64,000 nucleotides of DNA from an uncultured Bacteroidaceae bacterium (GTDB lineage Bacteria > Bacteroidota > Bacteroidia > Bacteroidales > GCA-2748055), in NCBI GenBank assembly GCA_964526475.1, contig CAZGKF010000002.1:66562-130561 (forward strand), given 5' to 3'. The notes under the pieces were generated by a model. That model was not told the DNA's origin. It worked only from the letters and a program-made list of their open reading frames with translations, and made no database searches. A program made the translations under genes and the position numbers. Below are positions 10,102-59,978 of the stretch, in pieces; position 1 is the stretch's first letter, and each line of letters starts with the position of its first letter.

Positions 10102-10123
10102 AAGTACGAATATTTTCGTACTT
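10102..10123 (-). terminator. Hairpin downstream of the small ORF 10172-10378
   Basis: aagtacgaa-tatt-ttcgtactt forms a perfect 9-bp stem. The sequence is T/A-rich after the stem on the minus strand. Confidence 0.3.
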
Positions 10124-10171
10124 GCTTTTTAGGTTCCGCACCATAATAATTATTCCTGTTTTTATAAAATC

Positions 10172-10378: not shown

Positions 10379-10489
10379 ATGAAATAAAACGATTAATGCT
10401 TTGTACTCTTGAAATTTGTTAATGACTTTTGTAATAAAAAAAATGTATTACTGATATCCGGTAATATCAAAAAAATATTTTATTACAAG

Positions 10490-10547
10490 AGATTTTTTAA
10501 CATTACAATCGCAGGACTAATTTCGACAAGATTTTTTAACATTACAA
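10490..10547 (+). repeat. Two perfect 19-bp direct repeats (agattttttaacattacaa) 39 bp apart, upstream of ubiE
   Basis: The copies lie at 10490-10508 and 10529-10547, read directly from the sequence. Confidence 0.6.
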
Positions 10548-10601
10548 AACCATTTCTTACAGATTCAATTAATTTTACCAAAAATAAAATAATTTCTATT
10601 A

Positions 10602-11321
10602 ATGAAAAATGACATTCCCGAAAAGCGGCCTTTATTGAAAATGTTTACAGCTGTTCCCCCCTCATATGATTTTCTGAACCGTTTGTTAACTTTTGGATTT
10701 GATCAGGTATGGAGGAGTAAAGCAGTAAAAGAATGTCTGGAAAACAATCCTGTGAATATTCTCGATCTTTGTTGTGGCACAGGGGATCTTGCCATTAAAC
10801 TCAGGAAATCTGCTTTGCCCGGGGCACATATAGTGGCACTTGATTACAGCGAAACTATGCTTGAAACAGCAAAGAAAAAGGCCAGCAGACGAAATCTAAC
10901 CAGCATAGATTTTCATTATGCTGATGCATCCAATATTCCTTTTCCTGATGAATATTTTGATACCATCGGAATATCGTTTGCTTTCCGGAACCTTACATTT
11001 CATAATCCCGACAGGGATAAATTCCTGTCTGAAATCCTCAGGGTGCTTAAATCCTCAGGTCGCTTTGTTATAGTGGAAACCAGCCAGCCAAATAAACGAT
11101 TACTCCGAAAACTTTACCATATTTATCTTAAATGGATAACAGCTCCGCTTGGCGGATTATTATCGGGACATCATGGAGCTTATAATTATCTCTCCTATTC
11201 TGCCCGCAATTATTACAGCAATGAGGAACTTAAAAAACTGTTAACTGAAAAAGGATTCTCCAAAGTTCATTCAGGGACTTTTCTTGGTGGGATTGCCGGT
11301 CTGCATGTAGTTATTAAATAA
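10602..11321 (+). CDS. ubiE: Demethylmenaquinone/ubiquinone methyltransferase
   Basis: 239 aa. MFTAVPPSYDFLNRLLTFGFDQVWR is the UbiE/MenG signature. SAM motif I is LDLCCGTGD. Confidence 0.85.
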   Translation: MKNDIPEKRPLLKMFTAVPPSYDFLNRLLTFGFDQVWRSKAVKECLENNPVNILDLCCGTGDLAIKLRKSALPGAHIVALDYSETMLETAKKKASRRNLTSIDFHYADASNIPFPDEYFDTIGISFAFRNLTFHNPDRDKFLSEILRVLKSSGRFVIVETSQPNKRLLRKLYHIYLKWITAPLGGLLSGHHGAYNYLSYSARNYYSNEELKKLLTEKGFSKVHSGTFLGGIAGLHVVIK

Positions 11322-45106: not shown

Positions 45107-45331
45107 ATGACAAAATCAAGAAGAAAATTTAACAGTGCCTTTAAGGCCAAAGTAGCTATTGAGACGCTCAAGGAGCGGGAATCATTAGCTGAATTATCCA
45201 GGCGTTTTGAGGTTCATCCGAACATTATAAGCAAATGGAAGAAAGAATTTATTGAGAATTCTTCAGCTGCATTTGAAAGCAAGTGTCCCCAGGAAAAGGA
45301 GGTGGATACTGAGAAGCTGTATGCCAAGATT
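45107..45331 (+). mobile_element. Truncated IS3-family transposase OrfA (remnant with no orfB)
   Basis: MTKSRRKFNSAFKAKVAIETLKERESLAELSRRFEVHPNIISKWKKEF...DTEKLYAKI is a typical IS3 OrfA HTH/leucine-zipper N-terminus. Similarity stops at about codon 75, and the ORF then runs into unrelated AT-rich sequence. Confidence 0.7.
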
Positions 45332-45526
45332 AGCTTTATAATTTGCATAGTATCATGCATATCCGCAAATACCTAAAGTTTTGCATACCTCATTTCAAGT
45401 GAAGCAACTTTCTTAGAATCAATGATATAAATCGATAGTATAAAACTACTAAAAAGGATAATCAGTCAAGATAGAATTGAAAACCAAAAAATATTTTTTG
45501 TAATTGAATAGATAATAAGAATTTTA

Positions 45527-45558
45527 TATATTTGTATTCTATTAATTCGATAGAATAC
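45527..45558 (+). promoter_or_regulatory. Bacteroidetes -7 box (TAtaTTTG) abutting a 9-7-9 palindrome, a candidate Rrf2 operator
   Basis: tatatttg lies at 45527-45534. gtattctat-taattcg-atagaatac lies at 45534-45558, 12 nt before the Rrf2 ATG. Confidence 0.35.
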
Positions 45559-45570
45559 TTATATTAAAAA

Positions 45571-45984
45571 ATGAAACTCAATACCAAAGTAAGGTACGGT
45601 TTGCGGGCAATGGTGGATATTGCTGAATATCAGCAGAATGAAGGAATACTACAAAAAGATATTGCCGAACGTCAGGAGATACCCCTTAAATATCTGGATG
45701 CTATAATAACCGGTTTACGTAACCATGGCTTGATCATAAATATACGCGGTAAACGCAGTGGGTATAAACTTATCAAACCGGCTTCCGATGTCTCGGTTTA
45801 TGATATTTATCGCGCTTTTGAACCGGAACTGACTTTGGTAAATTGTCTGTGTGAATCGCTGGACTGCAACCGCTCCGGAATTTGTCCAGCCAAAGATTAT
45901 TGGTTCGAACTGAACAAACACCTGAAGTCGCTAATGCAGAATACATCACTTCAAGAGGTAATATTGGGTACTTTCAGGTTATGA
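45571..45984 (+). CDS. Rrf2-family transcriptional regulator with a Cys cluster
   Basis: 137 aa. The N-terminus MKLNTKVRYGLRAMVDIA is the Rrf2 wHTH. The C-terminal Cys residues in NCLCESLDCNRSGIC suggest Fe-S ligation. Confidence 0.85.
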   Translation: MKLNTKVRYGLRAMVDIAEYQQNEGILQKDIAERQEIPLKYLDAIITGLRNHGLIINIRGKRSGYKLIKPASDVSVYDIYRAFEPELTLVNCLCESLDCNRSGICPAKDYWFELNKHLKSLMQNTSLQEVILGTFRL

Positions 45985-46051
45985 AAAGAAACAATGAATT
46001 AATATATTAACACTGCTGAGTTCGCTTATTTTTCTATATTCAGAGAAGCTT

Positions 46052-47191
46052 ATGACATATCTACTAACAAGAAGACGACAGGGCTATAACAGGAAGGCAA
46101 TAACTATTGCAATCTTTATCTTTTTTTTTCATGGTAGAACTTTTACTCAGGACAACTCGGCTGTTTCCGGATTTTTAAATTCGGGCAATGCTTATGCCAC
46201 TATGTTTTTCGAGTACTATTACATACATCAGGGCGATGATACTTACCCGGGGCGTTCACAATTTGCCAAAAACAAAACAGGTGATAATGCATTTTCTTTC
46301 CGAAGGGTTTATTTAGGTTATCAGCACACTTTTTCTGATAAATTCTCAGGCAAAGTTCAGTTCGAAGTGACCGACAGGACGATTCTTGGAGGAGGTCAGC
46401 GGGCACCATTCTTAAAAGAAGCCAATTTGATCTGGAAAGACTTTTACCCAATGGCCGATTTAATTATTGGTCATAGCCTCACTCCCATTTGGTCAATAGA
46501 AGGCGCTGAATTTATTTGGCAATACCGGTCCATAGAACGTACCATTGCAGATATGCGCGGCCTGCGCTCATCCAACGACTCGGGCATCAGGATTAAAGGG
46601 AGCTTTAACCAATCACGAACATACGGGTATAACTTTATGGTGGGGAATAATAACGGTGCCCGGCCCGAGAACGATAAATTCAAACTGGTTTATTTTAACT
46701 TATGGTCAAAGTTTTTCAATAAAAGATTTTACCTCGAAATATATCAGGATTACAATAAGGCTGCTGAAAACAGGCATATTACAACCACAAAGGGGGTTTT
46801 TGCATGGAAAACCCCAACCTACACGCTTGCTGCCGAAATGGTAAATCAAGATCGGGGCAGATTTGGGGCTGATAATGACGATATCATCATTCAGGGCATT
46901 AGTATCTTTGCCCACGCCAACATTTTGAATAATAATTTAAGGGCTTTCGGGCGCTTCGACTCTTACAACCCCGATGTTAACTTCTTTGCAGGTCATTATG
47001 CCACTGATGCTATAAAACCCTTCGATGAAAAGTTCTATACCTTTGGCCTGGATTTTACTCCTCATAATAATATCCATGTAATGCCAAATATCTGGATAAA
47101 CTCATATAAAAACAAGATGGACAGTCAGGAAACCCCAAAAACTGAGATTGTAGCCAGACTTACTTTTAATGTTAACTTTAAACAGAAATAA
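46052..47191 (+). CDS. Putative outer-membrane porin (phosphate-selective porin O/P-like)
   Basis: 379 aa with alternating beta-strand-like pattern, aromatic girdles and a C-terminal ...RLTFNVNFKQK. Family assignment is tentative. Confidence 0.4.
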   Translation: MTYLLTRRRQGYNRKAITIAIFIFFFHGRTFTQDNSAVSGFLNSGNAYATMFFEYYYIHQGDDTYPGRSQFAKNKTGDNAFSFRRVYLGYQHTFSDKFSGKVQFEVTDRTILGGGQRAPFLKEANLIWKDFYPMADLIIGHSLTPIWSIEGAEFIWQYRSIERTIADMRGLRSSNDSGIRIKGSFNQSRTYGYNFMVGNNNGARPENDKFKLVYFNLWSKFFNKRFYLEIYQDYNKAAENRHITTTKGVFAWKTPTYTLAAEMVNQDRGRFGADNDDIIIQGISIFAHANILNNNLRAFGRFDSYNPDVNFFAGHYATDAIKPFDEKFYTFGLDFTPHNNIHVMPNIWINSYKNKMDSQETPKTEIVARLTFNVNFKQK

Positions 47192-47253
47192 ATGTGTAGT
47201 GTAAAAAAAGTGATAGTTGATTTTAATTTGGTATTGTTTCTGGAAAGCAATGA

Positions 47254-48171
47254 ATGCAATTAACCAATAATTCTATGGGAAAATCAGAAAATAAAGACAA
47301 ACTCGCACGTCGTACGTTTTTGCGAAGTGCACTATTAACAGGTGCCACAGCCGGACTGGCAACTGCGGGTGTGATAGTTTCGCGTACTGGGAAACAGGGC
47401 GATACGCCTCTTGGTGAAGATACTATCCGCCTCATTTCAGAACCAGATACAATAAAACTCAATGAAGAATCGGATGTCCTGCTTCGAATGCAGGCAGAAT
47501 TGCGCACTGCGCTGAAAAAACCAGTTGAACAACGCAAATGGATTATGGTGATTGATACCCGTAAATGCGTGGGGTGTCACGCCTGCACGGTAGCATGTAT
47601 TGCTGAAAACAAGTTACCACCGGGGGTTGTTTACCGGCCGGTTGTTCAGGAGGAGTTTGGCAGGTATCCAAATGTTCAGTTGCGTTTTTTTCCCAGACCT
47701 TGCATGCAATGTGAATCCCCTTCGTGCACTACCGTATGTCCGGTAAAAGCCACCTGGAAACGGGAAGACGGAATTACAGTTGTTGATTACGAAAAGTGCA
47801 TTGGCTGCCGTTACTGCCTGACAGCTTGTCCTTACGGGGCAAGAACGAGCGACTTTGGGGAATATTACACTCAGGGAACACCTGAATTACAACCTTATGA
47901 GCTTCTTCCTAATAATGAGTATGGCAAAGCCTGGAACCGGTCAGAGGGGCATAGTTCACCCAAGGGCAATGCACGTAAATGTCATTTTTGCCTCCACCGT
48001 CTCGATGAAGGGCTTTTGCCACAGTGCGTTACTACCTGCATTGGCCGTGCTACCTATTTTGGCGATGCCAATAACCCTGAAAGCCTGATATCGGAACTTT
48101 CACGCTTACCGAACCAGATAAAGCTTCTCGAAGAAAAAGGGACAAAACCTAATGTCATTTATCTTATCTGA
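47254..48171 (+). CDS. ttrB: Tetrathionate-reductase-type 4Fe-4S ferredoxin subunit
   Basis: 305 aa with the twin-arginine-like [17 protein letters not shown]. Four Cys groups are present ([41 protein letters not shown]...CVTTC). Confidence 0.7.
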
Positions 48172-48177
48172 TCGGTC

Positions 48178-49320
48178 ATGGATAATAAAACACAAAATAT
48201 ATTGAAATTGATCTGGGCGCTCTTATTCATCATTGGATCAATAGCCCTGATCACTAAGTTCGCCACCGGTGAACGGTTGGTTGGTTACGGAAGCTACGTA
48301 CCTTGGGGGCTTTGGGTCGCCCTGTATTTCCATTTTGTGGGAATAGCAGGTGGAGTTTTTGTGATTGGGGCAGGTGGTTACATCTTGAACCTTCCCGGCT
48401 TTCGCGAGAATATCCGTTCCATCATGATCATTGCTGCTTCATCTGTGGTTGCAGGACTTTTATCTATCTGGCTTGACCTGGGACAGCCTTTCCGGTTCCA
48501 AAATATATTCATGTCTCCAAACTTTGGGTCAATGATGACATTTAATGCATGGTCTTACACCGCTTTTCTTATTATGATGGCTGCTATTTTTTACTTATCA
48601 TTTAAGAAAAATAACATCTCTGATTTAAATGACCGCACAGGCTGGTTACTTCCAATAATGATTTTAGGGATATTCATCTCAGTGGCTTTCCCCAGCCAAA
48701 GCGGTTCTTTCTTTGGGGTTGTGGATGCTAAACCATTCTGGAACTCGGGTCTTTTGTCTGTTATGTTCCTTACTTCGGCTATTACTTCGGGGGCAGCCGT
48801 TTTAATGTTTTATTTTACGGTTATTTCAAAAAGTGCCCGGCCAGATGATGCAACATTCAACTACTTGTTAAAAGTCCTGGTTGGCGGAATCCTGGCGTAT
48901 CTGGCCTCTGAATTTGCTGAATACAGTATTGCTTACTGGTCGCCCAATTCACATACCTTCGAAGCGGCAAAACTGGTTATTCAAGGGCCATTCTGGTGGG
49001 TATTCTGGTTAGTGCATATCGGTGGTGCAATTTTAGCACTGGTAATGCTTTTTACATTGAAAACGAAAGCATCGTATGGCATTGCAGCGTTCATCATCGC
49101 GGTAACTTTTGTTTCGGCTCGTTTGAATGTGTTGATTCCGGGGCAGAGCATTGAACAGCTTCACGGACTTAGAGAAGCTTTCTCGCACGATCGTTTAAGT
49201 TTTGTTTATACAGCGACTAAACTCGAGTACCTGGTGTCTTTTTTCATCGCGACCTTGCCTGTCGGGATGTCATACATCGGGATTATCTTATTGAGAAAGT
49301 TTGAGGCAATAATAAAATAG
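48178..49320 (+). CDS. ttrC: NrfD/PsrC-family integral membrane quinol-interacting subunit
   Basis: 380 aa, about 9-10 TM, located between the FeS and catalytic subunits. Confidence 0.65.
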   Translation: MDNKTQNILKLIWALLFIIGSIALITKFATGERLVGYGSYVPWGLWVALYFHFVGIAGGVFVIGAGGYILNLPGFRENIRSIMIIAASSVVAGLLSIWLDLGQPFRFQNIFMSPNFGSMMTFNAWSYTAFLIMMAAIFYLSFKKNNISDLNDRTGWLLPIMILGIFISVAFPSQSGSFFGVVDAKPFWNSGLLSVMFLTSAITSGAAVLMFYFTVISKSARPDDATFNYLLKVLVGGILAYLASEFAEYSIAYWSPNSHTFEAAKLVIQGPFWWVFWLVHIGGAILALVMLFTLKTKASYGIAAFIIAVTFVSARLNVLIPGQSIEQLHGLREAFSHDRLSFVYTATKLEYLVSFFIATLPVGMSYIGIILLRKFEAIIK

Positions 49321-49328
49321 ACAAGAAT

Positions 49329-52300
49329 ATGGACAAAAAAAATCAAAATATATCACGCAGGGGTTTTCTGGGGAAAGGTGCTTTATTGGGAACAGGTTTG
49401 GGCATTTTACCTGCTTCAAACCTGCTCGGCGCAAATGAGGGAAAAATCCTGAAGAACAAAAGAGAAGATGTAGATTATCAATTAAATAATCCTGAGAACA
49501 TCATGTATTCGGTATGCTTGAATTGTAATACCGGTTGTGGAATAAAATGTAAAATTCAGGAAGGAGTATTGGTGAAAATTGATGGAAATCCATACAATCC
49601 ATGGACCATGGTTCCTCACTTACCCATGAGTGCCAAAATGGATGAAACGGCAATAGTTGATGGAGGGCTTTGCCCAAAAGGCCAGGCAGGTGTGCAAATA
49701 GCCTATGACCCATACCGCATTCGCAAAGCGCTTAAACGTTCCGGTAAGCGGGGTGAGAACAAATGGATAAGCATTCCTTTCGATCAGGCCATTACAGAAA
49801 TTGTTGAAGGGGGCAATCTTTTTACTGAAGTTCCCGGTGAGGAAAACCGAAAAGTAGAAGGTTTACGTTCCATCATGGCACTAACGGATAAAAAGGTAGC
49901 CAAAGAGATGTCCAAAAGCGTTCAGGCAATTTGGGACGAAAAAGATGAAATCAGGAAAGCCAAATTGGTAAATAATTTTCAACAAACTTTTACCCACCAT
50001 CTTGAAGCACTTATTGACCCGTTGCACCCCGATTTGGGGCCAAAAAACAACCAGTTTGTTATCGCCTGGGGACGGTTAAAAAACGGACGCAAGGAGTTTA
50101 TTTCAAAATTGGGTGAAGCTTTTGGTACCACCAACCTTCATGGTCACACTACCGTTTGTCAGGGTTCCTTGTATTTTACCTGCAAAGCCATAAGTGAACA
50201 ATACATTGGCGGAAAGTTTAGCGGGGGTAATAAATTCTACTGGCAGACTGATATTGAACATGCCCGTTATATTTTATTTGTGGGTGCCAACCTGTTTGAT
50301 GCCAACTATGGGCCTACAAACCGAACAGTGAGGTTAACTAAAAACCTGGAAAGTGGCTATACAAAAATTGGTGTGGCTGATCCAAGGTATTCAAAACTTG
50401 CAAGCAAAGCAGAAACATGGCTGCCCATTAAGCCCGGGCAGGATGCAGCCCTGGCCTTAGCGATTATGCAATGGATGTTTCAAAATGAACGATTCGATAA
50501 GAAATTTCTTGCCAATGCCAATAAGGCTGCGGCAATTGCATCAGGAGAACCAAGCTGGACAAATGCATCGCTGCTTGTTGAAATGATCGATGGTGTACCT
50601 GGAAAACTACTGCGGGCTTCTGATCTTGGGCTCTGTTCCCCCGCTCAAAAATCACTTACCGATGGCACAAAATACGTAGAAAAATATTTGGTCGCTTCGG
50701 TAAACGGAAATCCGGTAAAAGTAGATCCAAACGATGATGCGTTTGCCATTTATGGCGATTTGTTTGTTGACAGGATTTTTACAAGAAAAGATGGTACGAA
50801 AGTAGCAGTGAAGTCGGCACTTCAGCTCTTAAAAGAAGAAGCCAATAAATATTCGTTTGCTGATTGGTGCGAGTTGGCAGGACTCAAGGAAAAAGATGTT
50901 GAAAAAGTGGCCAGGGAGCTTACCAGCTATGGCAAACAAGCATCAGTTGATATTCACCGGGGAGTAGCACAACACACGAATGGCTTTTACAATGTATTTT
51001 CATGGATGAGCGTGAATATGTTACTGGGCAATTATGACTGGCAAGGGGGTATGTCCAAAGCCACAACTTATAAGTATGATGGTTCAGGCGGAGGAAAATT
51101 TAACCTGAAAAATAATCCGGGTAAGATTCAAACCTTCGGCATCAGCAGTATCCGGCATGACATTGATTATGAAAAAACAACATTATTTGAAGGATACCCC
51201 GCGAAACGAAACTGGTACCCGCTTTCGAGTGATATATACGAAGAGATTATTCCCAGCATCGGTGAAGCATATCCTTATCCCGTTAAAGCACTTTTCACCT
51301 ATATGGGTGCACCCACTTACTCCCTGCCTGCCGGTCATACAAATATTGAGGTACTTACCGATTTGGAAAAACTTCCCCTGCATTTTACCAGCGATATACT
51401 TATTGGCTCCACCTCCATGTATGCCGATTATATTTTCCCCGATCTATCCTATTTGGAGCGTTGGGAGTTTCAGGGTTCCCACCCTAACATGATCTGCAAG
51501 GTGGAAAACATAAGGCAACCTGTTATTTCCCCCATACCTGAAACGGTGAAAGTTTATGGCGAAGAAATGCCTGTTTCAATGGAAACCACCTTAATGGCCA
51601 TTAGCGAAAAACTTGGGCTGGAATCGTTTGGGAAAAATGCCTTGGGGGATGGCATAGATTTTACCCGTCCTGAAGATTTATACCTGAGAGGTGTAGCAAA
51701 TATTGCCCTTGGAGATGCCCCCGGGAAAGAAGTCCCGGATGCCGACAAACGCGAATTGGAAATTTTCAGCCTCGCCCGTCGGCATTTGCCCAAAACGGTG
51801 TTTGATGAGGCAAGATGGAAAACTATTGTTGGCGAAGATATGTGGCCAAAAGTCGTTTACTTGCTTAACCGTGGAGGCCGGTATGCTGAAGCCGGGACAA
51901 ATGCCGATGGTAAGTTGACCAATAAATATGGCGCTTACATGAATTTATACCAGGAGAAAACAGCAGAAAAGAAATATTCAGGAACAGGAAAACCTTATTT
52001 TGGTTTACCGCAGTATATTCCACAGAAGAACTACGCAGGTGAAACACTTGAAAAGTTAAGTGAAGGGTACGATTTACATTTGATCACAAGTCGTACCATA
52101 ACGCAAACCAAATCCAGAACTGTATCAGCATACTGGCTTGAAGGAATATTACCGGAGAACTCCATTATAATAAATGCTCTTGATGCTGAAAGACTGGGCT
52201 TTGATGATGGTGAGGAAGCCAGGATTGTAAGTGCAACCAACCCAGAAGGAAAATGGGATTTTAAAAATGGTAAAACGAAGTTTATTATAGGGAGAATAAA

Positions 52301-52547
52301 AAAAACGGAAGCCATACGCCCTGGAATTATAAGTTTTTACCTGGGTTTTGGTCATTGGGCCACCGGAGCAGATGATGTGGAAATTAATGGGGAAATTGTA
52401 AAGGGCGACCCCCGGCGTGCTAAAGGATTTCATGCTAACGCCGTTATGTGGACAGACAGCTCTTTAAAAAATAATACCTGCATGGTTGATCCCGTAGGTG
52501 GAAGTGTTTCGTTTTACGACACTAAAGTTAAACTGGTTAAAGTATAA
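49329..52547 (+). CDS. ttrA: Molybdopterin (bis-MGD) oxidoreductase catalytic subunit, tetrathionate reductase TtrA-like
   Basis: 1072 aa with Tat signal SRRGFLGKGALLG. The N-terminal FeS motif is CLNCNTGC...CPKG. Its size (over 1000 aa) and the B-C-A gene order match Salmonella ttrBCA rather than psr/phs (A-B-C) or arr (A-B). Confidence 0.65.
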   Translation: MDKKNQNISRRGFLGKGALLGTGLGILPASNLLGANEGKILKNKREDVDYQLNNPENIMYSVCLNCNTGCGIKCKIQEGVLVKIDGNPYNPWTMVPHLPMSAKMDETAIVDGGLCPKGQAGVQIAYDPYRIRKALKRSGKRGENKWISIPFDQAITEIVEGGNLFTEVPGEENRKVEGLRSIMALTDKKVAKEMSKSVQAIWDEKDEIRKAKLVNNFQQTFTHHLEALIDPLHPDLGPKNNQFVIAWGRLKNGRKEFISKLGEAFGTTNLHGHTTVCQGSLYFTCKAISEQYIGGKFSGGNKFYWQTDIEHARYILFVGANLFDANYGPTNRTVRLTKNLESGYTKIGVADPRYSKLASKAETWLPIKPGQDAALALAIMQWMFQNERFDKKFLANANKAAAIASGEPSWTNASLLVEMIDGVPGKLLRASDLGLCSPAQKSLTDGTKYVEKYLVASVNGNPVKVDPNDDAFAIYGDLFVDRIFTRKDGTKVAVKSALQLLKEEANKYSFADWCELAGLKEKDVEKVARELTSYGKQASVDIHRGVAQHTNGFYNVFSWMSVNMLLGNYDWQGGMSKATTYKYDGSGGGKFNLKNNPGKIQTFGISSIRHDIDYEKTTLFEGYPAKRNWYPLSSDIYEEIIPSIGEAYPYPVKALFTYMGAPTYSLPAGHTNIEVLTDLEKLPLHFTSDILIGSTSMYADYIFPDLSYLERWEFQGSHPNMICKVENIRQPVISPIPETVKVYGEEMPVSMETTLMAISEKLGLESFGKNALGDGIDFTRPEDLYLRGVANIALGDAPGKEVPDADKRELEIFSLARRHLPKTVFDEARWKTIVGEDMWPKVVYLLNRGGRYAEAGTNADGKLTNKYGAYMNLYQEKTAEKKYSGTGKPYFGLPQYIPQKNYAGETLEKLSEGYDLHLITSRTITQTKSRTVSAYWLEGILPENSIIINALDAERLGFDDGEEARIVSATNPEGKWDFKNGKTKFIIGRIKKTEAIRPGIISFYLGFGHWATGADDVEINGEIVKGDPRRAKGFHANAVMWTDSSLKNNTCMVDPVGGSVSFYDTKVKLVKV

Positions 52548-52570
52548 TTACCAGGTTTAGTAAATGATTA

Positions 52571-52691
52571 TTACTCCGAGTTATGGTTTCTAATGCTAAA
52601 TGTAATGAAACCAAAACCGATGGGACAGACGGGAAACCTGCTGTCCTCCCGATTTGCGTCTGTGGCGTAATGAATTTGGAAAGGAGCAGTA
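52571..52691 (+). promoter_or_regulatory. Molybdenum-cofactor (Moco/Tuco) riboswitch-like aptamer
   Basis: The conserved Moco-motif strings occur in order: ACUCCGAG (52573-80), ACGGGAAAC (52629-37), GUCCUCCC (52643-50), GGAAAGGAG (52678-86). Supporting hairpins are ggtttc/gaaacc (52585-90/52607-12) and gacag/ctgtc (52624-28/52641-45). Confidence 0.65.
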
Positions 52692-52776
52692 AATATTTTT
52701 CAGTCATTGTAAGCATTCCGAAAGGGACAAAATTGTTCTTTTCCGGTTAGTTGTTCTATGACCGAAAAAACAAGTA

Positions 52777-52810
52777 CTCCTCTTTTCTATGCGAAAAGAG
52801 GTTTTTTTTT
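52777..52810 (+). terminator. Intrinsic terminator acting as the riboswitch expression platform
   Basis: cctcttttc-tatgc-gaaaagagg is followed by nine T (52802-52810). It lies 17 nt before the ATG at 52827. Confidence 0.6.
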
Positions 52811-52826
52811 ATTTTCAGAAAGCACG

Positions 52827-54554
52827 ATGAAAAGCGATGTGACATTGAGCGATACCTGGCTGAAGGCCTCCATACTGGGCGCAACATGGGCTGCCTCCGA
52901 AATTATCTTAGGAAGCTTTCTGCATAATTTACGTATCCCATTTAAAGGCAATATCCTGACTACTATCGCTTTTATCCTGCTAATAGCGGTTAGTTACAAA
53001 TGGAATGACCGTGGATTATTCTGGCGCTCGGGGCTGGTTTGTGCATTAATGAAGACCATGTCTCCCAGTGCGGTAATTTTTGGTCCTATGGTAGCCATTT
53101 TTATGGAGTCGCTTCTGCTTGATCTTTCAGTGAGACTTTTAGGCCGGAACGTTTTAGGCTTTTTGTTAGGATCAGTAATTGCTATGTCGTGGATATTAGC
53201 ACAAAAGATATTCAACTATATACTTTTCTATGGGCATGGTCTGATTGATATCTATAGCCAGCTTATGATATTTATTGAAAAACAGTTGCAATTTCAATTC
53301 AATCTGGTTTGGGCGCCCATTGTTATATTGCTGGGCATTAATCTCCTTTTTGGCCTTATTGCTGTTGCTTTGGGTATGTATGCAGGACGAAACCTGATAA
53401 ACGAATCTAATACCTTAGAAAAAGCTCAGGGATTTAAGCAGCACGACCTGCCGGTTCAAAAACCAGGGCATTTCCCTTACTCGGTGCCATGGCTGATTGT
53501 AAATATCGCAGTGCTATTGGGTATGTTGTTTATTCTAAACAGAAGCCCTTTATGGCTTTGGGCCCCAACCACAATTATCGTAATCTCTGTATGGAGCCAT
53601 CGCTACGGTCGTGCTTTACGACAGCTATCCAAACCTAAATTCTGGGTATTCTTTGTGGGTATAACAATGGTATCCGCTTTTATAATCACTGCTATCCAAA
53701 ACAATGGAGACAACTGGGTGCAAGGATTGCTCGCGGGCTTGCAAATGAATTTCAGGGCAGCAATTGTTATTAGCGGATTCACTGTTCTTGGAACAGAGCT
53801 TTACAATCCAATAATCAGGCAATTTTTTTCCCGAAGCACCTTTAAACAATTGCCTGTGGCTTTAAATCTGGCATTTGAAACGCTCCCTTATGTTATCGGT
53901 AAATTACCCGATGTTAAAAGCATTCTAAAATATCCTGTTACTGTTATCAGACTATTGGTCAATCACGCGGAAGATCGGTTTAAGGAGCTGAAAAGCATTC
54001 AGAAGAAGCCTGTTTTTTTAATTACCGGGGATAAATCAGAAGGTAAAACACGATTTACTAAAGAACTCATTGAGTCTTTACAATCTGGAAAAATATCGGT
54101 TGGAGGAGTACTCTCCTGTAAAATAACAATTAATGGAACTACCTCGGGCTATGATCTTATTGATATTGCTACTGGCGAAAGGATGCAATTTCTTAAAATA
54201 AACGGGGAATTAACTTCACATAAAGTTGGGAGGTTCGAAATTAATTCACAAACATTATTACAAGGGAAACAAATTCTTCACCCATCAAAGCTTTCAATGC
54301 ATGATGTTGTAGTTATTGATGAGACAGGCAAATTGGAAGTTCAGGGAAAAGGATGGGCCGATAGTATTGAAGGAATCCTGAAAGCAAATAGTCATCCATT
54401 AGTTATAACCGTCAGAACTGATTTTATCAACGCGGTCATCGAAAAATTTGGTCTTGAAAACCCTCTTATTCATCGCGTTTCTGATAGCAATAGTCATCAG
54501 GTTGCAAATAATATTATTGAGGCATGCATAGAAATGAAGAGATTACCGGAATAA
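52827..54554 (+). CDS. Fusion protein: polytopic membrane domain of about 390 aa plus a C-terminal THEP1/NTPase_1-type P-loop NTPase
   Basis: The start is placed at 52827 (MKSDVTL) because the track start at 52758 would span the terminator. Walker A is ITGDKSEGKT and Walker B is VVVIDETGKLE. The GYDLIDIATGE and HKVGRFEIN blocks resemble THEP1. Confidence 0.55.
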   Translation: MKSDVTLSDTWLKASILGATWAASEIILGSFLHNLRIPFKGNILTTIAFILLIAVSYKWNDRGLFWRSGLVCALMKTMSPSAVIFGPMVAIFMESLLLDLSVRLLGRNVLGFLLGSVIAMSWILAQKIFNYILFYGHGLIDIYSQLMIFIEKQLQFQFNLVWAPIVILLGINLLFGLIAVALGMYAGRNLINESNTLEKAQGFKQHDLPVQKPGHFPYSVPWLIVNIAVLLGMLFILNRSPLWLWAPTTIIVISVWSHRYGRALRQLSKPKFWVFFVGITMVSAFIITAIQNNGDNWVQGLLAGLQMNFRAAIVISGFTVLGTELYNPIIRQFFSRSTFKQLPVALNLAFETLPYVIGKLPDVKSILKYPVTVIRLLVNHAEDRFKELKSIQKKPVFLITGDKSEGKTRFTKELIESLQSGKISVGGVLSCKITINGTTSGYDLIDIATGERMQFLKINGELTSHKVGRFEINSQTLLQGKQILHPSKLSMHDVVVIDETGKLEVQGKGWADSIEGILKANSHPLVITVRTDFINAVIEKFGLENPLIHRVSDSNSHQVANNIIEACIEMKRLPE

Positions 54555-55093
54555 TACTGGCTGGTGGTAAAAGCACCAGAATGGGCATCGACAAATCAAA
54601 CTTGTTGTTCCGTGGAAAAAGATTGATAGAGTATCCCTATGAGCTGATGCGGGAGAAGTGTCAAAAAATAATTATAAGCACTAATACCAGCAGTTTAAAA
54701 CTGCCGGGGGTAAGCTATGTGCCCGACAACTACAAGGATATAGGTCCACTGGCCGGACTGGAAGCCGGATTAAGGCTTTCAGATACCCGGTGGAATTTTG
54801 TTTTGCCCTGCGACATGCCTTTTGTTAATAGTGAATTATTCTCAGTCATGCAGGATGAACTCGATGGTTACGATTACATAGTTCCCCAGACTGCTGATGG
54901 AAAGGTAACTCCATTGGCGGGGTTTTTCAACCGCAATATTCTTAATGTAATCGTTCAGCAAATTAAGTCCGGCGATTATAAAGCAGGAAACCTTTTAAAA
55001 AGGTTAAAGGTGAAATATTTTCACACCACGAACAATCTTGTTACAGTAAACTTCAATACCCTAAACGATTTGGAGCCCTTTCTCGATAAATAA
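54524..55093 (+). CDS. mobA: Molybdenum cofactor guanylyltransferase
   Basis: 189 aa with GIILAGGKSTRMGIDKSNL and GPLAGLEAGL...LPCDMPF signatures. Overlaps the upstream gene by 31 nt. Confidence 0.8.
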   Translation: MHRNEEITGIILAGGKSTRMGIDKSNLLFRGKRLIEYPYELMREKCQKIIISTNTSSLKLPGVSYVPDNYKDIGPLAGLEAGLRLSDTRWNFVLPCDMPFVNSELFSVMQDELDGYDYIVPQTADGKVTPLAGFFNRNILNVIVQQIKSGDYKAGNLLKRLKVKYFHTTNNLVTVNFNTLNDLEPFLDK

Positions 55094-55120
55094 TCTACAA
55101 TAAAACTACTCTTTTCCAAC

Positions 55121-57088
55121 ATGAAGTATGTAATTATAACATTCCGGTTAATTTTTCTCGCGCTTGGCGTACATTCACAAGCAACAAGCGATTCAATTAA
55201 ATATAAAATGTATTTTCTGGGTGAAGTGGTTATTAGTGAGCATATTGATAAAAACACACTATCGGCGGATGAGATCCGAAAAAACAATGCTAATGATGTA
55301 AGTTCGGCTCTGAATTTAATGCCTTCTGTGGTAATAAATAAAGTGGGCAATCGAAACGAAAGTACAGTGTATATAAGAGGATTTGATATTCGCGGCATTC
55401 CTGTTTTTATTGATGGTATTCCGGTGTATGTGCCCTACGATGGGTATGTTGATTTGGCACGTTTTACTACCTATGATATATCGGGAATTGATGTTTCAAA
55501 GGGATTCTCTTCCATGATGTATGGTGCCAATACTATCGGTGGGGCCATTAATTTAATAAGTGCGAAACCAAAAAACCGCCTGGAAATTGATACCAGATTG
55601 GGTATGATGAGCGGTAAAGGATACGACACCAAAGTAAATATCGGTAGTAATATGGGTAAAATGTATTTTCAAGCTGGTCTTTCTATCCTTGAAAGAAAAT
55701 TTTTTCCCCTTTCTGCACATTTTGACACTACACCTACTGAAACAGATAATAAACGCGACAATTCAAATCGAAAAGACATGAAAGGAAACTTTAAAATAGG
55801 CTATACTCCCAATGGCAGCGATGAATACGCGATTAATTATATTTATTCGCATGGCAGCAAAGGAAATCCGGTGTATTTGGGTCATGATGACAATATGCCT
55901 CTTCGTTACTGGGATTGGCCATATTGGGATAAGCAGAGCCTTTATTTTATCTCTAAAACAACCCTGGGAACAAACTCGTATCTTAAAACCCGTTTCTATT
56001 TTGATCAATTTAAAAACAGGCTGGATAGTTACGATGATGAAAGCTATTCATCCCAAACAAGAGGCTATGCTTTCACGAGTTTTTACGATGATCATACCCT
56101 GGGAGGTAATCTTGAGCTGGTGAGCAATTTGGATAATAAAAATACGGTGAAATTCTCTGTTCACCTTAAAAACGATAATCATAGTGAGCATAATGCAGGA
56201 GAGCCACTAAGAAGAGTTGCCGATAATACCATCTCATTAGGTATCGAGCATATTTTAAAGGCCGGTGACAAACTAAGTTTTATACCCGGTTTTGCTTACC
56301 ACCTGCGTCAAAGCTTGCAGGCAGATAATTATAATCCGGCAGATCAATCTATTTCTCAATTTCCTAAAAATACCAATGATGCTTTTAACGCGCAATTGGG
56401 AACCTACTATCGAATTTCAGATTTTATAAGAATGAATTTCAATATGGCATATAAAACCCGTTTTGCCACCATGAAAGACCGATATTCATACCGATCGGGA
56501 AGGAGTCTGGCTAATCCTGGTTTGCGATCGGAATCGGCTTTGAGTTTTGAATATGCAACAAGTTTTTCTTTGGGTGAAAAATTAGCGTTAATACCTGAAA
56601 TTTTCTTCACCCGACTTAACAATACCATTCAAATGGTGGACAATGTAAGAGGGAATCTTTCGCAAGTACAAAATACAGGCAAGGCAAACTATACCGGAGC
56701 CGACATCAGTTTGATTTATACTGCTATAAAAAAACTAAGATGGCACACCTCCTATTCTTATATCAAACGGGAGAATTTGAGTAATTCCGACATTCTGTTC
56801 ACCGATATTCCGGAACATAAAGTTCTTACTTCTTTAGAGTACCTGTCTGCAGAAATAATCAATGGAAATCTCACGTTCGAATATAATTCCGGACGCAATT
56901 CATCAAGTGATGGCTCCAGGATTTCTTCCGCTTACTTTTTAACAAATGTCAATATATTTTTTAGTTTATCAGAACACTCCAACATAGAAACCGGAGTAAA
57001 CAATATTTTAGATAAAAACTATACGATTGAAGAAGGCTATCCCGAAATGGGACGCAACTTTTATTTCGCACTGAATTTTACTTTTTAA
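55121..57088 (+). CDS. TonB-dependent outer-membrane receptor
   Basis: 655 aa with a signal peptide. The plug domain contains VYIRGFDIRGIPVFIDGIPV, and the terminal strand is GRNFYFALNFTF. Confidence 0.85.
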   Translation: MKYVIITFRLIFLALGVHSQATSDSIKYKMYFLGEVVISEHIDKNTLSADEIRKNNANDVSSALNLMPSVVINKVGNRNESTVYIRGFDIRGIPVFIDGIPVYVPYDGYVDLARFTTYDISGIDVSKGFSSMMYGANTIGGAINLISAKPKNRLEIDTRLGMMSGKGYDTKVNIGSNMGKMYFQAGLSILERKFFPLSAHFDTTPTETDNKRDNSNRKDMKGNFKIGYTPNGSDEYAINYIYSHGSKGNPVYLGHDDNMPLRYWDWPYWDKQSLYFISKTTLGTNSYLKTRFYFDQFKNRLDSYDDESYSSQTRGYAFTSFYDDHTLGGNLELVSNLDNKNTVKFSVHLKNDNHSEHNAGEPLRRVADNTISLGIEHILKAGDKLSFIPGFAYHLRQSLQADNYNPADQSISQFPKNTNDAFNAQLGTYYRISDFIRMNFNMAYKTRFATMKDRYSYRSGRSLANPGLRSESALSFEYATSFSLGEKLALIPEIFFTRLNNTIQMVDNVRGNLSQVQNTGKANYTGADISLIYTAIKKLRWHTSYSYIKRENLSNSDILFTDIPEHKVLTSLEYLSAEIINGNLTFEYNSGRNSSSDGSRISSAYFLTNVNIFFSLSEHSNIETGVNNILDKNYTIEEGYPEMGRNFYFALNFTF

Positions 57089-57198
57089 TACAAACTGTTC
57101 CCTGTCCCTGCGTTCAGAAGAAAAGATGAAAATGTAATAAAAATTATTTTTTTTTGTATTTTAAATATCGTATGTTTACGACATTAGAAATTAAGATT

Positions 57199-57582
57199 AT
57201 GAATAAATCAGAAAAATTTGACCCATCCTTACAGGAATTGTCTCGCTTTGCAAAGGCAATTGCTCATCCAGCCAGGCTGGCTATTTTGGAACATCTTGCT
57301 GAGACTAAAACCTGCATATCCGGTGATATATCCGATTTTCTTCCATTGAGCAGGACAACAGTTTCCCAACACCTTAAAGAACTCAGGGATTTGGGATTGA
57401 TCCACGGCACAATAGATGGTCTTAAAGTAAACTATTGTCTTGATCATTCTGTCATTGAAACTTATCTCTCCATGTTTGATTCTTTTTTTGAACCCATAAA
57501 ATCAGTCAACGTGGAATGCCTGAACGGCCATCATCATGTTAAAAAATCAAAGCGTGAAAAATCGATAGTAATAAACAAATAA
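57199..57582 (+). CDS. arsR: ArsR/SmtB-family metalloregulator
   Basis: FAKAIAHPARLAILEHL...CISGDISDFLPLSRTTVSQHLKELRDLGLI is the wHTH with a Cys near the alpha3 metal site. The start at 57199 is preferred, but 57172 is possible. Confidence 0.8.
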   Translation: MNKSEKFDPSLQELSRFAKAIAHPARLAILEHLAETKTCISGDISDFLPLSRTTVSQHLKELRDLGLIHGTIDGLKVNYCLDHSVIETYLSMFDSFFEPIKSVNVECLNGHHHVKKSKREKSIVINK

Positions 57583-57593
57583 AATTCATTAAA

Positions 57594-57971
57594 ATGAGAA
57601 CCTTAAAGAATCAATTGACTTTTTGTTTATTTGGCGGAATCCTGATTATTGCGAATGCATGCACTAATACACATGCGGAAAATAAACAATCCCCCGAAAA
57701 CACGCCGGTTGTTTCCGCAAATGCGGAAAGCAAAGCAGAAACCACCCCTAAAAATAATTCTGAGTTTCAAAGCGCCCTGGATAAAGCAAAGAGTGCCGGA
57801 CAAGCAGCGTTTGTAGTTGTTACAGGGAATGGAGTTGCTGAAACTGAAAAAGTAATACTGAGTGTTCAGAAACTCTCAAACGCAAGCCGCTTAAAAAAGG
57901 GAATTCTTCATTTCCATTATTCAGACAGAACAGCTGCGGCACAGGACCAGGATGTTGCGGTTAAATTATAA
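57594..57971 (+). CDS. Hypothetical lipoprotein within the ars cassette
   Basis: 125 aa with a signal peptide and lipobox IANAC. No recognisable family. Confidence 0.35.
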   Translation: MRTLKNQLTFCLFGGILIIANACTNTHAENKQSPENTPVVSANAESKAETTPKNNSEFQSALDKAKSAGQAAFVVVTGNGVAETEKVILSVQKLSNASRLKKGILHFHYSDRTAAAQDQDVAVKL

Positions 57972-57983
57972 ATTTTTATAATC

Positions 57984-58430
57984 ATGAAAATAACAGAACA
58001 AGGTATGAAAGTTTTAATCCTTTGTACGGGAAACAGTTGCCGTAGCCAGATGGCTCATGGCTTTCTGCAAAGTTTTGATAAAAATCTTATGGTTCATTCA
58101 GCGGGTACAGACGCTTCCGGTAAGTTAAACCAGAAGGCTGTTTCAGTCATGAAAGAAATCGGAATCGATATAAGTCACCACACTTCAGATTCTGTTGAAA
58201 AATACCTGGGAGAAGAATGGGACTTTGTGATTACGGTATGTGGGGGAGCAAACGAAGCTTGTCCTGCTTTTTTTGGTAAGGTAAAGCATCGCCTGCATAT
58301 TGGTTTTAACGACCCTTCGCATGTTACCGGAACGGATGATTACATTTGGAGTGAGTTCCGTCGTGTAAGGGATGAGATTAAGGAGGAATTTTACAAGCTG
58401 TATAAAGAAGAAATTGAACCTCAATTATAG
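57984..58430 (+). CDS. arsC: Arsenate reductase, LMW-PTPase (thioredoxin-coupled) type
   Basis: 148 aa with P-loop CTGNSCRS (CX5R). A downstream Cys pair VCGGANEAC is equivalent to the Cys82/Cys89 relay. Confidence 0.85.
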   Translation: MKITEQGMKVLILCTGNSCRSQMAHGFLQSFDKNLMVHSAGTDASGKLNQKAVSVMKEIGIDISHHTSDSVEKYLGEEWDFVITVCGGANEACPAFFGKVKHRLHIGFNDPSHVTGTDDYIWSEFRRVRDEIKEEFYKLYKEEIEPQL

Positions 58431-58472
58431 AATGGTATTAAAAATATTACAAAACCTATAAACCATATAATT

Positions 58473-58844
58473 ATGAAATCACTTGCAATATTGGGAACCG
58501 ACCTGTCACCAGCTTCGGATAAGCTAATAGAATGTGCACATGAGTATAGAAATCTTGGAATAAAGAAAATAACTCTTGTCCACGCATTGGGATTAAAGCA
58601 CATACAGGCATTTGAAGATATATTGAGAAAGGATACTGACGAGAAACTTGAAGTGCAAAAAAAGAAACTGGAAGAACAGGGTTTTGAGGTTGACTACAAA
58701 GTCAAGCCCCACCTGGCAAAAGATGAACTACAGAAGCTGGCAGAAGATTCCGGCGCTGCTTTGATTATTATCGGCACTCATGGCATTCCGATTCCAACGT
58801 ATTATTTGTTCCATTACCAGGAAATTAGATCTGTTTTTTCGTAA
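58473..58844 (+). CDS. Universal stress protein family, apparently C-terminally truncated
   Basis: 123 aa, Usp-like up to ALIIIGTHG. It then diverges (IPIPTYYLFHYQEIRSVFS) where Usp proteins carry the G-x2-G-x9-GS(V/T) ATP-binding end. Confidence 0.45.
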   Translation: MKSLAILGTDLSPASDKLIECAHEYRNLGIKKITLVHALGLKHIQAFEDILRKDTDEKLEVQKKKLEEQGFEVDYKVKPHLAKDELQKLAEDSGAALIIIGTHGIPIPTYYLFHYQEIRSVFS

Positions 58845-58949
58845 GTTAACCAGTTTAAGCATAAATTAAACAGCTATCGCTACAGGTGGTGATTAAAATT
58901 TATCATTTTTTGAAATAATAATTTGTAAAACCGATAAATAATAATTCAA

Positions 58950-59978
58950 ATGATTCAAAAGAAAACAATAAGCTTTTTCGATAAATACTTAACTGTCTGG
59001 GTTGCTCTCGGAATCCTTGCAGGGATTCTGATTGGTCATCTGGCAGGTGACAGCATCGAAATAATAAGCAGCATGGAGATAGCAAAGGTGAATATCCCGG
59101 TTGCCATCCTTATCTGGCTGATGATCTATCCCATGATGCTTCAGATCGATTTTACCAGTATCCGGAAGATTGGTAAAAAGCCACGGGGTGTGATCTGGAC
59201 TGTAGTTATCAATTGGCTCATTAAGCCTTTCACCATGACCTTTTTTGCCTGGATATTTTTTACTAAACTTTATTCCGCATGGATCGACCCTGCGCTGGCT
59301 GGAGAATACATTGCCGGGGCGATTCTGCTGGGAGCAGCACCCTGCACAGCCATGGTATTTGTATGGTCATATCTTTCTGATGGAGATCCAAATTACACAC
59401 TTGTACAAGTCTCGGTGAACGACCTGATTATTCTGGTGGCGTTTATCCCCATAGTTGGATTATTGCTTGGTATAACCAATGTGGTGATCCCTTATGACAC
59501 CCTGGTAGCAAGCATTCTAATTTTCGTCGTTATACCGCTTGTTGCAGGAGTTATAACCCAGCGGATTTTGTTAAAATCGAAAGGTGAAGAATGGTTTAAA
59601 AAGGAATTTCTGCCTAAACTTAAACCGGTGAGTATAGTGGCACTACTTGTTACCCTGGTATTCCTTTTCGCGTTCCAGGGACAAAACATCATCAATAATC
59701 CCCTGATTATTCTTTTAGCAGCTGTTCCTTTGGTAATACAGACCTACTTTATTTTTTTCATTGCCTGGTACGGCGGAAAAAAACTCAAACTCCCCTACCC
59801 TGTTTGTGCTCCTGCAGCCATGATCGGAGCCAGCAACTTCTTTGAACTGGCCGTGGCTGTTGCCATTGCATTATTCGGGTTACAGTCACCGGCTGCCTTA
59901 GTAACGGTAGTAGGGGTTCTGGTTGAAGTGCCTGTGATGTTGTCGCTGGTGGCTTTTGCGAACAGGAGGAGATATTAA
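58950..59978 (+). CDS. acr3: ACR3-family arsenite efflux transporter
   Basis: 342 aa, 10 TM. Blocks IQKKTISFFDKYLTVWV, MIYPMM and GAAPCTAMV (conserved Cys) are typical of Acr3. Confidence 0.9.
   Translation: MIQKKTISFFDKYLTVWVALGILAGILIGHLAGDSIEIISSMEIAKVNIPVAILIWLMIYPMMLQIDFTSIRKIGKKPRGVIWTVVINWLIKPFTMTFFAWIFFTKLYSAWIDPALAGEYIAGAILLGAAPCTAMVFVWSYLSDGDPNYTLVQVSVNDLIILVAFIPIVGLLLGITNVVIPYDTLVASILIFVVIPLVAGVITQRILLKSKGEEWFKKEFLPKLKPVSIVALLVTLVFLFAFQGQNIINNPLIILLAAVPLVIQTYFIFFIAWYGGKKLKLPYPVCAPAAMIGASNFFELAVAVAIALFGLQSPAALVTVVGVLVEVPVMLSLVAFANRRRY

Follow-up and report, generated by a model that had tools for sequence, protein, structure and literature searches.

A tetrathionate-reductase-like operon in an arsenic island of a Bacteroidales bacterium encodes a candidate arsenate reductase distinct from Arr

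Which substrate is reduced by a molybdoenzyme that resembles tetrathionate reductase (Ttr) and is encoded close to arsenic resistance genes? The question is raised by positions 45571-52547 on the + strand of a 64,000-nucleotide stretch of DNA from an uncultured Bacteroidaceae bacterium (contig CAZGKF010000002.1; the whole stretch is called the window below), where five co-directional genes encode an Rrf2 regulator, a porin-like protein, an iron-sulfur (FeS) subunit, an NrfD subunit and a molybdenum-bis(pyranopterin guanine dinucleotide) (Mo-bisPGD) subunit. We conclude that the last three form a three-subunit respiratory oxidoreductase of the Ttr-like branch of the dimethyl sulfoxide (DMSO)-reductase family, which is not a bona fide Ttr. 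On balance, the enzyme is probably a menaquinol-dependent periplasmic arsenate reductase of a non-Arr type, located in a horizontally acquired arsenic island. Ttr-like arsenate reductases as a kind have been in the literature since 2017-2020 (PMC5492636, PMC11462812, PMC12949373, PMC13608581). The operon and its promoter region comprise the following features, in which Tat denotes twin-arginine translocation and FS0 the FeS cluster site of the catalytic subunit.

45534..45558, no strand: 9-7-9 palindrome, candidate Rrf2 operator (direct sequence reading)
45571..45984, + strand: Rrf2-family regulator, 137 aa (PF02082 107.6 bits; TIGR00738 114 bits)
46052..47191, + strand: predicted outer-membrane 16-strand porin, 379 aa (predicted structure and Foldseek)
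47254..48171, + strand: FeS subunit, 305 aa, TtrB/DsrO/ArrB-like, predicted to be Tat-exported and to hold four clusters (Fer4_11 and related matches)
48178..49320, + strand: NrfD/PsrC-type membrane anchor, putatively quinol-oxidising, 380 aa (PF03916 102.7 bits)
49329..52547, + strand: catalytic Mo-bisPGD subunit, 1072 aa (Tat signal, FS0 Cys motif, Cys277, Gly248-Arg249)

The operon is real and intact. All five genes are complete and tightly spaced with clean signals, the FeS and NrfD genes being separated by 6 nt and the NrfD and catalytic genes by 8 nt. A first-pass annotation, made from the letters of the DNA, had placed the genes at these positions in the order FeS-NrfD-catalytic and had described a catalytic subunit of more than 1000 aa with a Tat signal and a CxxCxxxC motif. 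Both descriptions proved accurate: the 1072-aa protein carries the Tat signal SRRGFLG and the FS0 motif C62-x2-C65-x3-C69...C114. Likewise, neither a histidine kinase nor a response regulator of the TtrS/TtrR type was found among the neighbours of the operon, in accordance with the reported absence of this two-component system.

The same annotation favoured Ttr over Psr/Phs or Arr. This holds at the level of the superclade, in NCBIfam scores and in both trees described below, but does not extend to a bona fide TtrA. With the TtrA model (NF011567, an equivalog) the catalytic subunit reached 452.2 bits against a cut-off of 1750; the values were 198 bits against 694 for PhsA (Psr/Phs, NF012032) and 105 bits against 1600 for ArrA (NF041714), so that all three scores lie below their cut-offs. 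Among sequences of the Protein Data Bank (PDB), PsrA (2vpw) was the best match with 114 bits, and ArrA gave 77 bits. The structural model of the subunit (predicted template-modelling score, pTM, 0.80) retrieved generic Mo-bisPGD enzymes, with ArrA (6cz7) and PsrA (2vpw) ranking best by target TM-score. The partner subunits show a similar picture: the FeS subunit, with a twin-arginine stretch RRTFLR and four Cys groups, scored 170.7 bits with DsrO, 168.3 bits with TtrB and 151.3 bits with ArrB, all under the cut-offs, and the NrfD subunit matched the TtrC model with an E value of only 1.8e-4.

Relatives of the catalytic subunit are numerous. A set of 5.8 billion proteins yielded 3451 matches, of which the best 120 are all at least 61% identical and span Bacteroidota, Ignavibacteriota, Rhodothermota, Spirochaetota, Chloroflexota, Nitrospirota, Planctomycetota and Verrucomicrobiota. 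Confirmed relatives occur in at least 587 species-representative genomes, and the 80 loci kept from these are all at least 53% identical. The closest homologue (83-86% identity) comes from Bacteroidales metagenome-assembled genomes (MAGs), which agrees with the Bacteroidota context assigned before. Identity drops to 28% for the annotated TtrA of enterobacterial plasmids and to 30-32% for three further Ttr-like types, from Citrobacter arsenatis-type plasmids, haloarchaea and Azospirillum. A tblastn search of plasmids returned true TtrA and these three types, and no Arr or Psr.

Trees were calculated with FastTree (103 sequences) and IQ-TREE (44 sequences), using as references the annotated TtrA of an E. 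coli plasmid (L007), Geobacterales proteins of the ArrA clade and Psr/Phs-like proteins with 436-537 bits to PhsA. The ArrA references match the ArrA model over its full length at ~1000-1100 bits, under the strict cut-off of 1600; no ArrA reference turned up when the order of a MAG labelled Enterobacterales was searched. In both trees Psr/Phs falls outside, and Arr is sister to a Ttr-like superclade with support of 100 (IQ-TREE) and 97 (FastTree) in the Shimodaira-Hasegawa-like approximate likelihood ratio test (SH-aLRT). The catalytic subunit thus clusters within neither Psr/Phs nor Arr, either of which placements would have contradicted the Ttr assignment. The superclade is divided into three major subclades in IQ-TREE and four in the larger FastTree. 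One of them (SH-aLRT 100) unites the Citrobacter arsenatis type with a clade (100) made up of annotated, true TtrA and Azospirillum Ttr. The window's protein is placed in another subclade (SH-aLRT 96) together with haloarchaeal, Methanoperedens and Bathyarchaeia sequences. There it belongs to a tight clade (SH-aLRT 100) with proteins of Limisphaera sp. 4302-co, Phycisphaeraceae, Chloroflexota, Melioribacteraceae, Rhodohalobacter, Anaeromyxobacter and Geobacteraceae. The Limisphaera enzyme is 62% identical, the homologues from Anaeromyxobacter MAGs and Geobacteraceae ~55%. Owing to the low model score, the 28% identity, the different subclade and the Gly-Arg motif described next, the name TtrA is, in its strict sense, wrong for this protein.

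In Arr, Arx and Ttr-like arsenate reductases a Gly-Arg pair is conserved whose Arg corresponds to ArrA R165, and true Ttr is without it (PMC12949373). In the window's protein W-G248-R249 aligns with the RGRY stretch of ArrA, at a site where true TtrA has TNTS (E. coli plasmid) or LSSV. Furthermore, C277, H273 and T274 align with ArrA C193, H189 and S190, and R249, H273 and C277 are invariant in an alignment of 19 sequences from the clade and its sister clade. This reading of the active site rests on sequence alignment.

Physiological evidence comes from studies of other Ttr-like enzymes. Limisphaera sp. 4302-co respires arsenate, not selenate or thiosulfate, without possessing ArrABC, and its arsenate reduction was ascribed by the authors to the Ttr-like complex (PMC13608581). 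We found a single TtrA-model match in its genome, namely the 62%-identical protein (L017), and no ArrA. Ttr-like arsenate reductases were described as phylogenetically distinct from true Ttr and Arr and as unable to reduce tetrathionate (PMC12949373). In Melioribacter roseus a Ttr-type gene is induced by arsenate (PMC5492636), and in paddy-soil metatranscriptomes 'ttrA' homologues defined on the basis of strains PSR-1 and OR-1 were the dominant putative arsenate reductase transcripts (PMC11462812). The earlier caution that tetrathionate should not be assumed as the substrate is justified.

The third line of evidence is the genomic neighbourhood. The reductase genes of the window lie in a larger block with the following further features, where LMW-PTPase stands for low-molecular-weight protein tyrosine phosphatase, Moco and Tuco for molybdenum and tungsten cofactor, IS for insertion sequence and ORF for open reading frame.

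45107..45376, + strand: IS3-type transposase fragment (HTH_Tnp_1; PF01527, E 1.7e-8), the island's upstream edge
52562..52702, + strand: Moco/Tuco riboswitch before the likely cofactor-supply genes (Rfam RF01055, 59.5 bits against a gathering score of 36)
52758..57088, + strand: membrane protein/NTPase_1 fusion, MobA and TonB-dependent receptor (Pfam; MobA NF001457 108.9 bits)
57154..59978, + strand: arsenic cassette of ArsR, 125-aa ORF, LMW-PTPase-type ArsC, Usp and Acr3 (Pfam HTH_5/HTH_20, LMWPc, Usp, SBF)
57154-57582, + strand: ArsR (Pfam HTH_5/HTH_20)
57984-58430, + strand: ArsC, LMW-PTPase type (Pfam LMWPc)
58950-59978, + strand: Acr3 (Pfam SBF)

The first-pass annotation had described the operon, rather in passing, as physically linked to an arsenic cassette. 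The linkage is real, but the two are not contiguous, as the Moco-riboswitch operon (52562-57088) separates them. A terminator-like hairpin lies at 52779-52801; promoter and terminator scans gave background level only. The 125-aa ORF in the arsR-arsC interval (57594-57971) has neither a Pfam match nor a homologue in the 83 loci of the clade.

Across these 83 loci, Acr3, ArsC, ArsP, ArsA or ArsD is encoded within 10 kb of the enzyme in 20, and in 16 of the 41 loci with a length of at least 20 kb. By chance alone, a position so close to one of the few ars operons of a genome would be expected for no more than a few per cent of genes. In the two closest Bacteroidales loci the operon is followed by ArsC and Acr3 (L010) or accompanied by ArsR, Acr3, Usp, ArsD and ArsA (L012); ArsR-type genes are located just upstream in loci of Desulfobulbus, Geobacteraceae and Anaeromyxobacteraceae, and a sister subclade (P0127) is flanked by ArsA and ArsD. 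Genes for PstSCAB-PhoU adjoin the operon in a Rhodohalobacter (L002) and a Phycisphaeraceae locus (L003), the latter of which additionally encodes a PHO4 phosphate transporter and a protein of the Porin_O_P family; arsenate is an analogue of phosphate. Salar de Ascotan, an arsenic-rich salt flat, is named in the record titles of the MAGs from which the closest relatives come. The recurrent linkage to arsenic genes across the clade speaks for arsenate as the likeliest substrate. The host genome contains no second PF00384 enzyme and, consequently, no ArrA.

Several variants of the gene set were observed in the clade. In some Actinomycetota (Gaiellaceae) the NrfD and catalytic subunits are fused into proteins of 1470-1489 aa (P0126, P0130). 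A Desulfobulbus MAG (G004) contains two copies of a 1107-aa enzyme of the clade on separate contigs. In the Rhodohalobacter MAG (L002, 1367-13219) one porin gene is followed by two tandem BCA sets, the first of which has its catalytic gene broken into an 802-aa and a 266-aa piece.

From the subunit types an electron path can be proposed. Menaquinol would be oxidised by the NrfD subunit in the inner membrane, and the electrons would pass through four [4Fe-4S] clusters of the Tat-exported FeS subunit to FS0 (C62, C65, C69, C114) and then to a Mo-bis(molybdopterin guanine dinucleotide) (Mo-bis-MGD) centre with Cys277 as ligand in the 1072-aa subunit. At this periplasm-facing centre As(V) would be reduced to As(III), with Arg249, His273 and Thr274 presumably taking the places of the arsenate-binding residues Arg165, His189 and Ser190 of ArrA. 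TatC is encoded in the host genome, and a homologue of the FeS gene adjoins the catalytic gene in 78 of the 83 loci. Arsenic reaching the cytoplasm would be handled by the ArsR-ArsC-Acr3 cassette.

The presence of a porin-like gene ahead of the operon, as claimed in the first-pass annotation, is supported by structure prediction. The 379-aa protein itself has no Pfam match; of 11 homologues in the same position in related loci, four match BBP2, two Porin_4 and one Porin_O_P (E 1.7e-4). An AlphaFold model built on the alignment of these homologues (mean predicted local distance difference test, pLDDT, 76.7; pTM 0.73) shows 16 strands and an inward loop bearing a helix. Foldseek retrieved OmpT, OprP, Omp32 and OprO, which are trimeric general and anion-selective porins, at probability 1.0 and TM 0.55-0.64. 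According to this model the protein is a general 16-strand porin. Homologues stand immediately upstream of the operon in 10-12 loci of the clade, and the co-transcribed porin possibly constitutes the entry route by which the oxyanion substrate would cross the outer membrane. A label as phosphate-type porin was also considered and dropped, as the PF07396 (Porin_O_P) model did not match the window's porin and hhalign against a Porin_O_P protein gave a non-significant probability of 8%.

The Rrf2 regulator had been described as Cys-rich with a palindrome in its promoter, and both properties were found again. The protein contains C92, C94, C99 and C105, of which C92, C99 and C105 form the cluster-type motif with the spacing of IscR/NsrR-type cluster ligands. 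Having the domain and three cluster-ligand cysteines, it would by its sequence be counted among the Fe-S-binding Rrf2 proteins. At 45534-45558 the palindrome forms a perfect 9-7-9 inverted repeat, with 12 nt between its end and the Rrf2 start codon. No further perfect copy exists in the window; one other match was found with 3 mismatches, where 0.05 matches are expected by chance, and a second operator copy ahead of the porin or FeS genes was not found. In the closest related locus (L010) a diverged copy occupies the equivalent position upstream of the Rrf2 gene. The target of the regulator is probably the palindrome overlapping its own promoter, and candidate signals may be redox state, Fe-S status or binding of As(III) to the thiols. 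Bound to the palindrome, Rrf2 would couple expression to redox or Fe-S status. Homologues are encoded upstream of the operon in six other loci of the clade, with 70% identity in L010 and 25-34% in the Limisphaera, Verrucomicrobiota and Planctomycetota loci; C92 and C105 are kept in all six and C99 in five. As other members of the clade and related loci have different regulators (ArsR, OmpR-type or sigma-54 two-component systems, or Crp), the pairing with Rrf2 is recurrent, though not universal.

The whole block, an arsenic island, was acquired horizontally. Its GC content is 0.42-0.44 (46-54 kb) compared to ~0.36 outside, an IS fragment marks its upstream edge, and the catalytic gene was found in none of 40 relatives at E ≤1e-50 (two from the host's genus, 22 from its family and 16 from its order). 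The locus adds a Bacteroidales host to the clade, which moves here as a mobile arsenic island equipped with a porin, an Rrf2 regulator and a module that likely supplies the cofactor.

This last module leads to a puzzle. The host encodes one Mo-bisPGD enzyme, its sole PF00384 protein, as well as MobA and a Moco riboswitch, despite the lack of synthesis genes: the MoaA C-terminal domain, MoaC, MoaE, MoeA and ModA were not found in the 98.35%-complete assembly. The lone MoCF_biosynth match is a 428-aa ORF; ORFs of this kind also match in B. thetaiotaomicron and T. maritima, which served as Moco-free controls. MoaC and MoeA occur in the identical 13 of 41 related genomes and are missing from both genomes of the same genus, whereas five other genomes of the Fibrobacterota-Chlorobiota-Bacteroidota (FCB) group with an enzyme of the clade do have MoaC. 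PF00384 enzymes are present in 30 of the 41 genomes, 18 of which have no MoaC or MoeA, pointing towards a working alternative cofactor supply rather than decay.

Homologues of the membrane part of the 598-aa fusion protein (52758-54554) were found in 14 of these 18 genomes, in two of the 13 biosynthesis-positive genomes and in none of the 10 genomes with neither; since the relatives are not independent, this distribution is to be read as a pattern and not as a statistical test. A related locus (L110, 8094-10517) has NTPase_1, MobA and the membrane protein ahead of Psr-like A-B-C genes and sulfur transporters. A search for a Moco riboswitch next to the related triads of L110-L112 gave no match. 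The feature-based look-alikes of the membrane part are T and S components of energy-coupling factor (ECF) transporters with 0.75-0.77, under the trustworthy range.

The membrane/NTPase-MobA-TonB receptor genes likely serve the supply of cofactor or metal to the reductase, and the way in which the membrane-protein/NTPase/MobA module tracks molybdoenzymes in moa-less relatives hints at cofactor salvage. Possible sources of the cofactor are salvage of the cofactor or a precursor, a novel synthesis route, moa genes on unbinned contigs, or the enzymes may be inactive. We tentatively entertain, as a rather unlikely case, that a molybdopterin-less Bacteroidales lineage runs its Ttr-like arsenate reductase on imported Moco or a pterin precursor. 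Uptake would then proceed through the riboswitch-gated TonB-dependent receptor and the ECF-like membrane protein/NTPase, followed by conversion to bis-MGD by MobA, and the triad would likewise serve Psr-like enzymes in related genomes without moa and moe. No bacterial uptake of Moco is described in the literature found, and the pathway would, if true, be the first bacterial Moco salvage pathway.

How firmly arsenate can be assigned depends on what speaks for other explanations. A number of points weigh against it. Direct enzymology for the clade was not found in the literature covered, which did not extend to the primary Anaeromyxobacter study, and the support for arsenate reduction consists of induction, proteomics and growth correlation. 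The authors of the M. roseus study preferred a Psr/Phs-type enzyme as main arsenate reductase and considered the Ttr-type auxiliary (PMC5492636), and Ttr-like enzymes have also been tied to thiosulfate disproportionation (PMC12949373). About 60% of the long loci have no arsenic gene nearby, and the regulator here is Rrf2, not ArsR. Occurring as it does in several further Ttr-like subclades whose function is uncharacterised, the Gly-Arg motif is non-specific; it is consistent with arsenate but not decisive. The trees were calculated without the PSR-1, OR-1 and M. roseus proteins and without SrdA. Finally, the missing cofactor-synthesis genes imply that the enzyme may be inactive in its host.

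On this last point, the operon could be a recent passenger that is non-functional in a host unable to make molybdopterin. The absence of the five synthesis genes in a nearly complete genome, the absence of MoaC and MoeA from both same-genus genomes, the restriction of the operon to this genome among the 40 relatives, the IS fragment and the GC shift would all suit such an arrival. We nevertheless regard it as distinctly unlikely: the five genes are undamaged and closely spaced, their signals are clean, the island supplies its own MobA, Moco riboswitch and receptor/transporter module, the 18 related genomes with PF00384 enzymes but without MoaC or MoeA are in the same situation, and the moa genes may sit on an unbinned contig.

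Functional enzymes with other properties have to be considered as well. An appreciable, if minor, chance is left to a different substrate, be it selenate (as for SrdBCA), antimonate, thioarsenate, thiosulfate or polysulfide, the arsenic genes then being part of a general metalloid island. The substrate range of the family is notoriously plastic, SrdBCA has the same gene order and was named among the closest characterised homologues of the Limisphaera enzyme (PMC13608581), Ttr-like enzymes were found in sulfur disproportionators (PMC12949373), and rhodanese, thioredoxin and CMD genes adjoin some loci. Against this stand the respiration of arsenate and not selenate or thiosulfate by Limisphaera sp. 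4302-co, and the recurrent neighbours (Acr3, ArsC, ArsA/D, ArsP), which are specific for arsenic and not for selenium or sulfur. A true tetrathionate reductase with a different regulator is improbable. While TtrA is the best-scoring named model, the BCA order is that of the E. coli plasmid ttr locus, and length and Tat signals fit, the score and identity given above are far too low, the subclade is separate and well supported, TtrSR is absent, and the Gly-Arg motif present here is missing from bona fide Ttr (PMC12949373). We consider it highly improbable that the enzyme operates in the oxidative direction, as an Arx-like arsenite oxidase feeding the quinone pool. Arr and Arx, which are closely related, can run in either direction in vitro, and sister subclades adjoin a phosphonate-binding-type periplasmic sensor, a kinase and a sigma-54 regulator recalling AioXSR, but such a sensor is absent from this locus, the cultured members of the clade in the literature covered are arsenate reducers, no nitrate reductase or terminal oxidase genes were found in the 64-kb window, and the genome holds no other Mo-bisPGD enzyme. 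A respiratory arsenate reductase therefore is the reading that we prefer.

The sensors were seen in three loci of sister Ttr-like subclades (L113, L114, L115), where a phosphonate-binding-type periplasmic protein, an sCache_3_2 kinase and a regulator are encoded upstream. Sensors of the same type also serve as TtrS-like tetrathionate and thiosulfate sensors, so that they are not diagnostic, and an arsenic-specific role was rejected. One of these sister enzymes (P0143) is located within an MtrB/PioB porin-cytochrome cluster.

If the assignment to arsenate is correct, the routine annotations 'tetrathionate reductase' and 'molybdopterin oxidoreductase' mask what is probably a very widespread route of arsenate respiration. 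With at least 587 species genomes from many phyla, the clade bears on how much arsenic mobilisation is estimated for sediments, aquifers and paddy soils. The missing cofactor pathway of the host raises a question beyond arsenic, namely whether bacteria scavenge the molybdenum cofactor.

In comparison with known systems, PsrABC/PhsABC (2vpw) shares the three-subunit architecture with an NrfD anchor and is the best PDB sequence match, but has the gene order A-B-C, a catalytic subunit of ~750 aa and the position of an outgroup in the trees. ArrAB of Shewanella sp. ANA-3 (6cz7) is similar in the equivalent active-site Arg, His, Ser/Thr and Cys and in the proposed substrate, and ArrA is among the two best structural matches. 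Unlike the window's enzyme, ArrA is ~850 aa long and makes up a clade of its own, and an NrfD gene is usually missing between B and A.

With TtrBCA (Salmonella type; E. coli plasmid pC27A-4, L007) the enzyme has in common the B-C-A order, the subunit types, Tat export, a catalytic length of ~1020-1070 aa and a Cys ligand of Mo. The E. coli plasmid locus differs in the low identity of its catalytic subunit, its major subclade, the presence of TtrSR and the TNTS stretch found instead of WGR at the position of ArrA Arg165. The Citrobacter arsenatis LY-1 plasmid (L006) likewise carries a Ttr-like BCA operon with the Gly-Arg motif in an arsenic island; the identity is 30.8%, and as it belongs to the subclade that holds true TtrA it represents an independent pairing of a Ttr-like enzyme with arsenic genes. 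There the operon (6058-10862) is divergent from arsRDABC, on conjugative IncFII plasmids that were found in Citrobacter, Salmonella, Enterobacter and E. coli; in its annotation only the catalytic subunit bears a generic name, while the FeS gene is called 'DsrO' and the membrane gene hypothetical.

The greatest similarity is to the Ttr-like arsenate reductases, with which the Gly-Arg motif, a length of more than 1000 aa with Tat signal, a genome without ArrA and the linkage to ars genes are shared. They include MROS_1076, the Ttr-type enzyme of the arsenate reducer Melioribacter roseus (PMC5492636), and the TtrA homologue of Anaeromyxobacter sp. PSR-1 (WP_059435911.1), a Ttr-like arsenate reductase according to Muramatsu 2020 as cited in PMC11462812 and PMC12949373; the likeness to the latter is drawn through proteins of Anaeromyxobacter MAGs and not PSR-1's own protein. 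The present host differs from those of the others by the lack of Moco biosynthesis. Here and in a few FCB-group relatives the operon opens with an Rrf2 gene and a dedicated porin gene, whereas in Desulfobacterota and Myxococcota members of the clade the FeS gene stands directly ahead of the catalytic gene, often with ArsR upstream. Closest among the described systems is the complex of Limisphaera sp. 4302-co (PMC13608581), with which the window's enzyme shares the tight, fully supported clade (SH-aLRT 100) at 62% identity.

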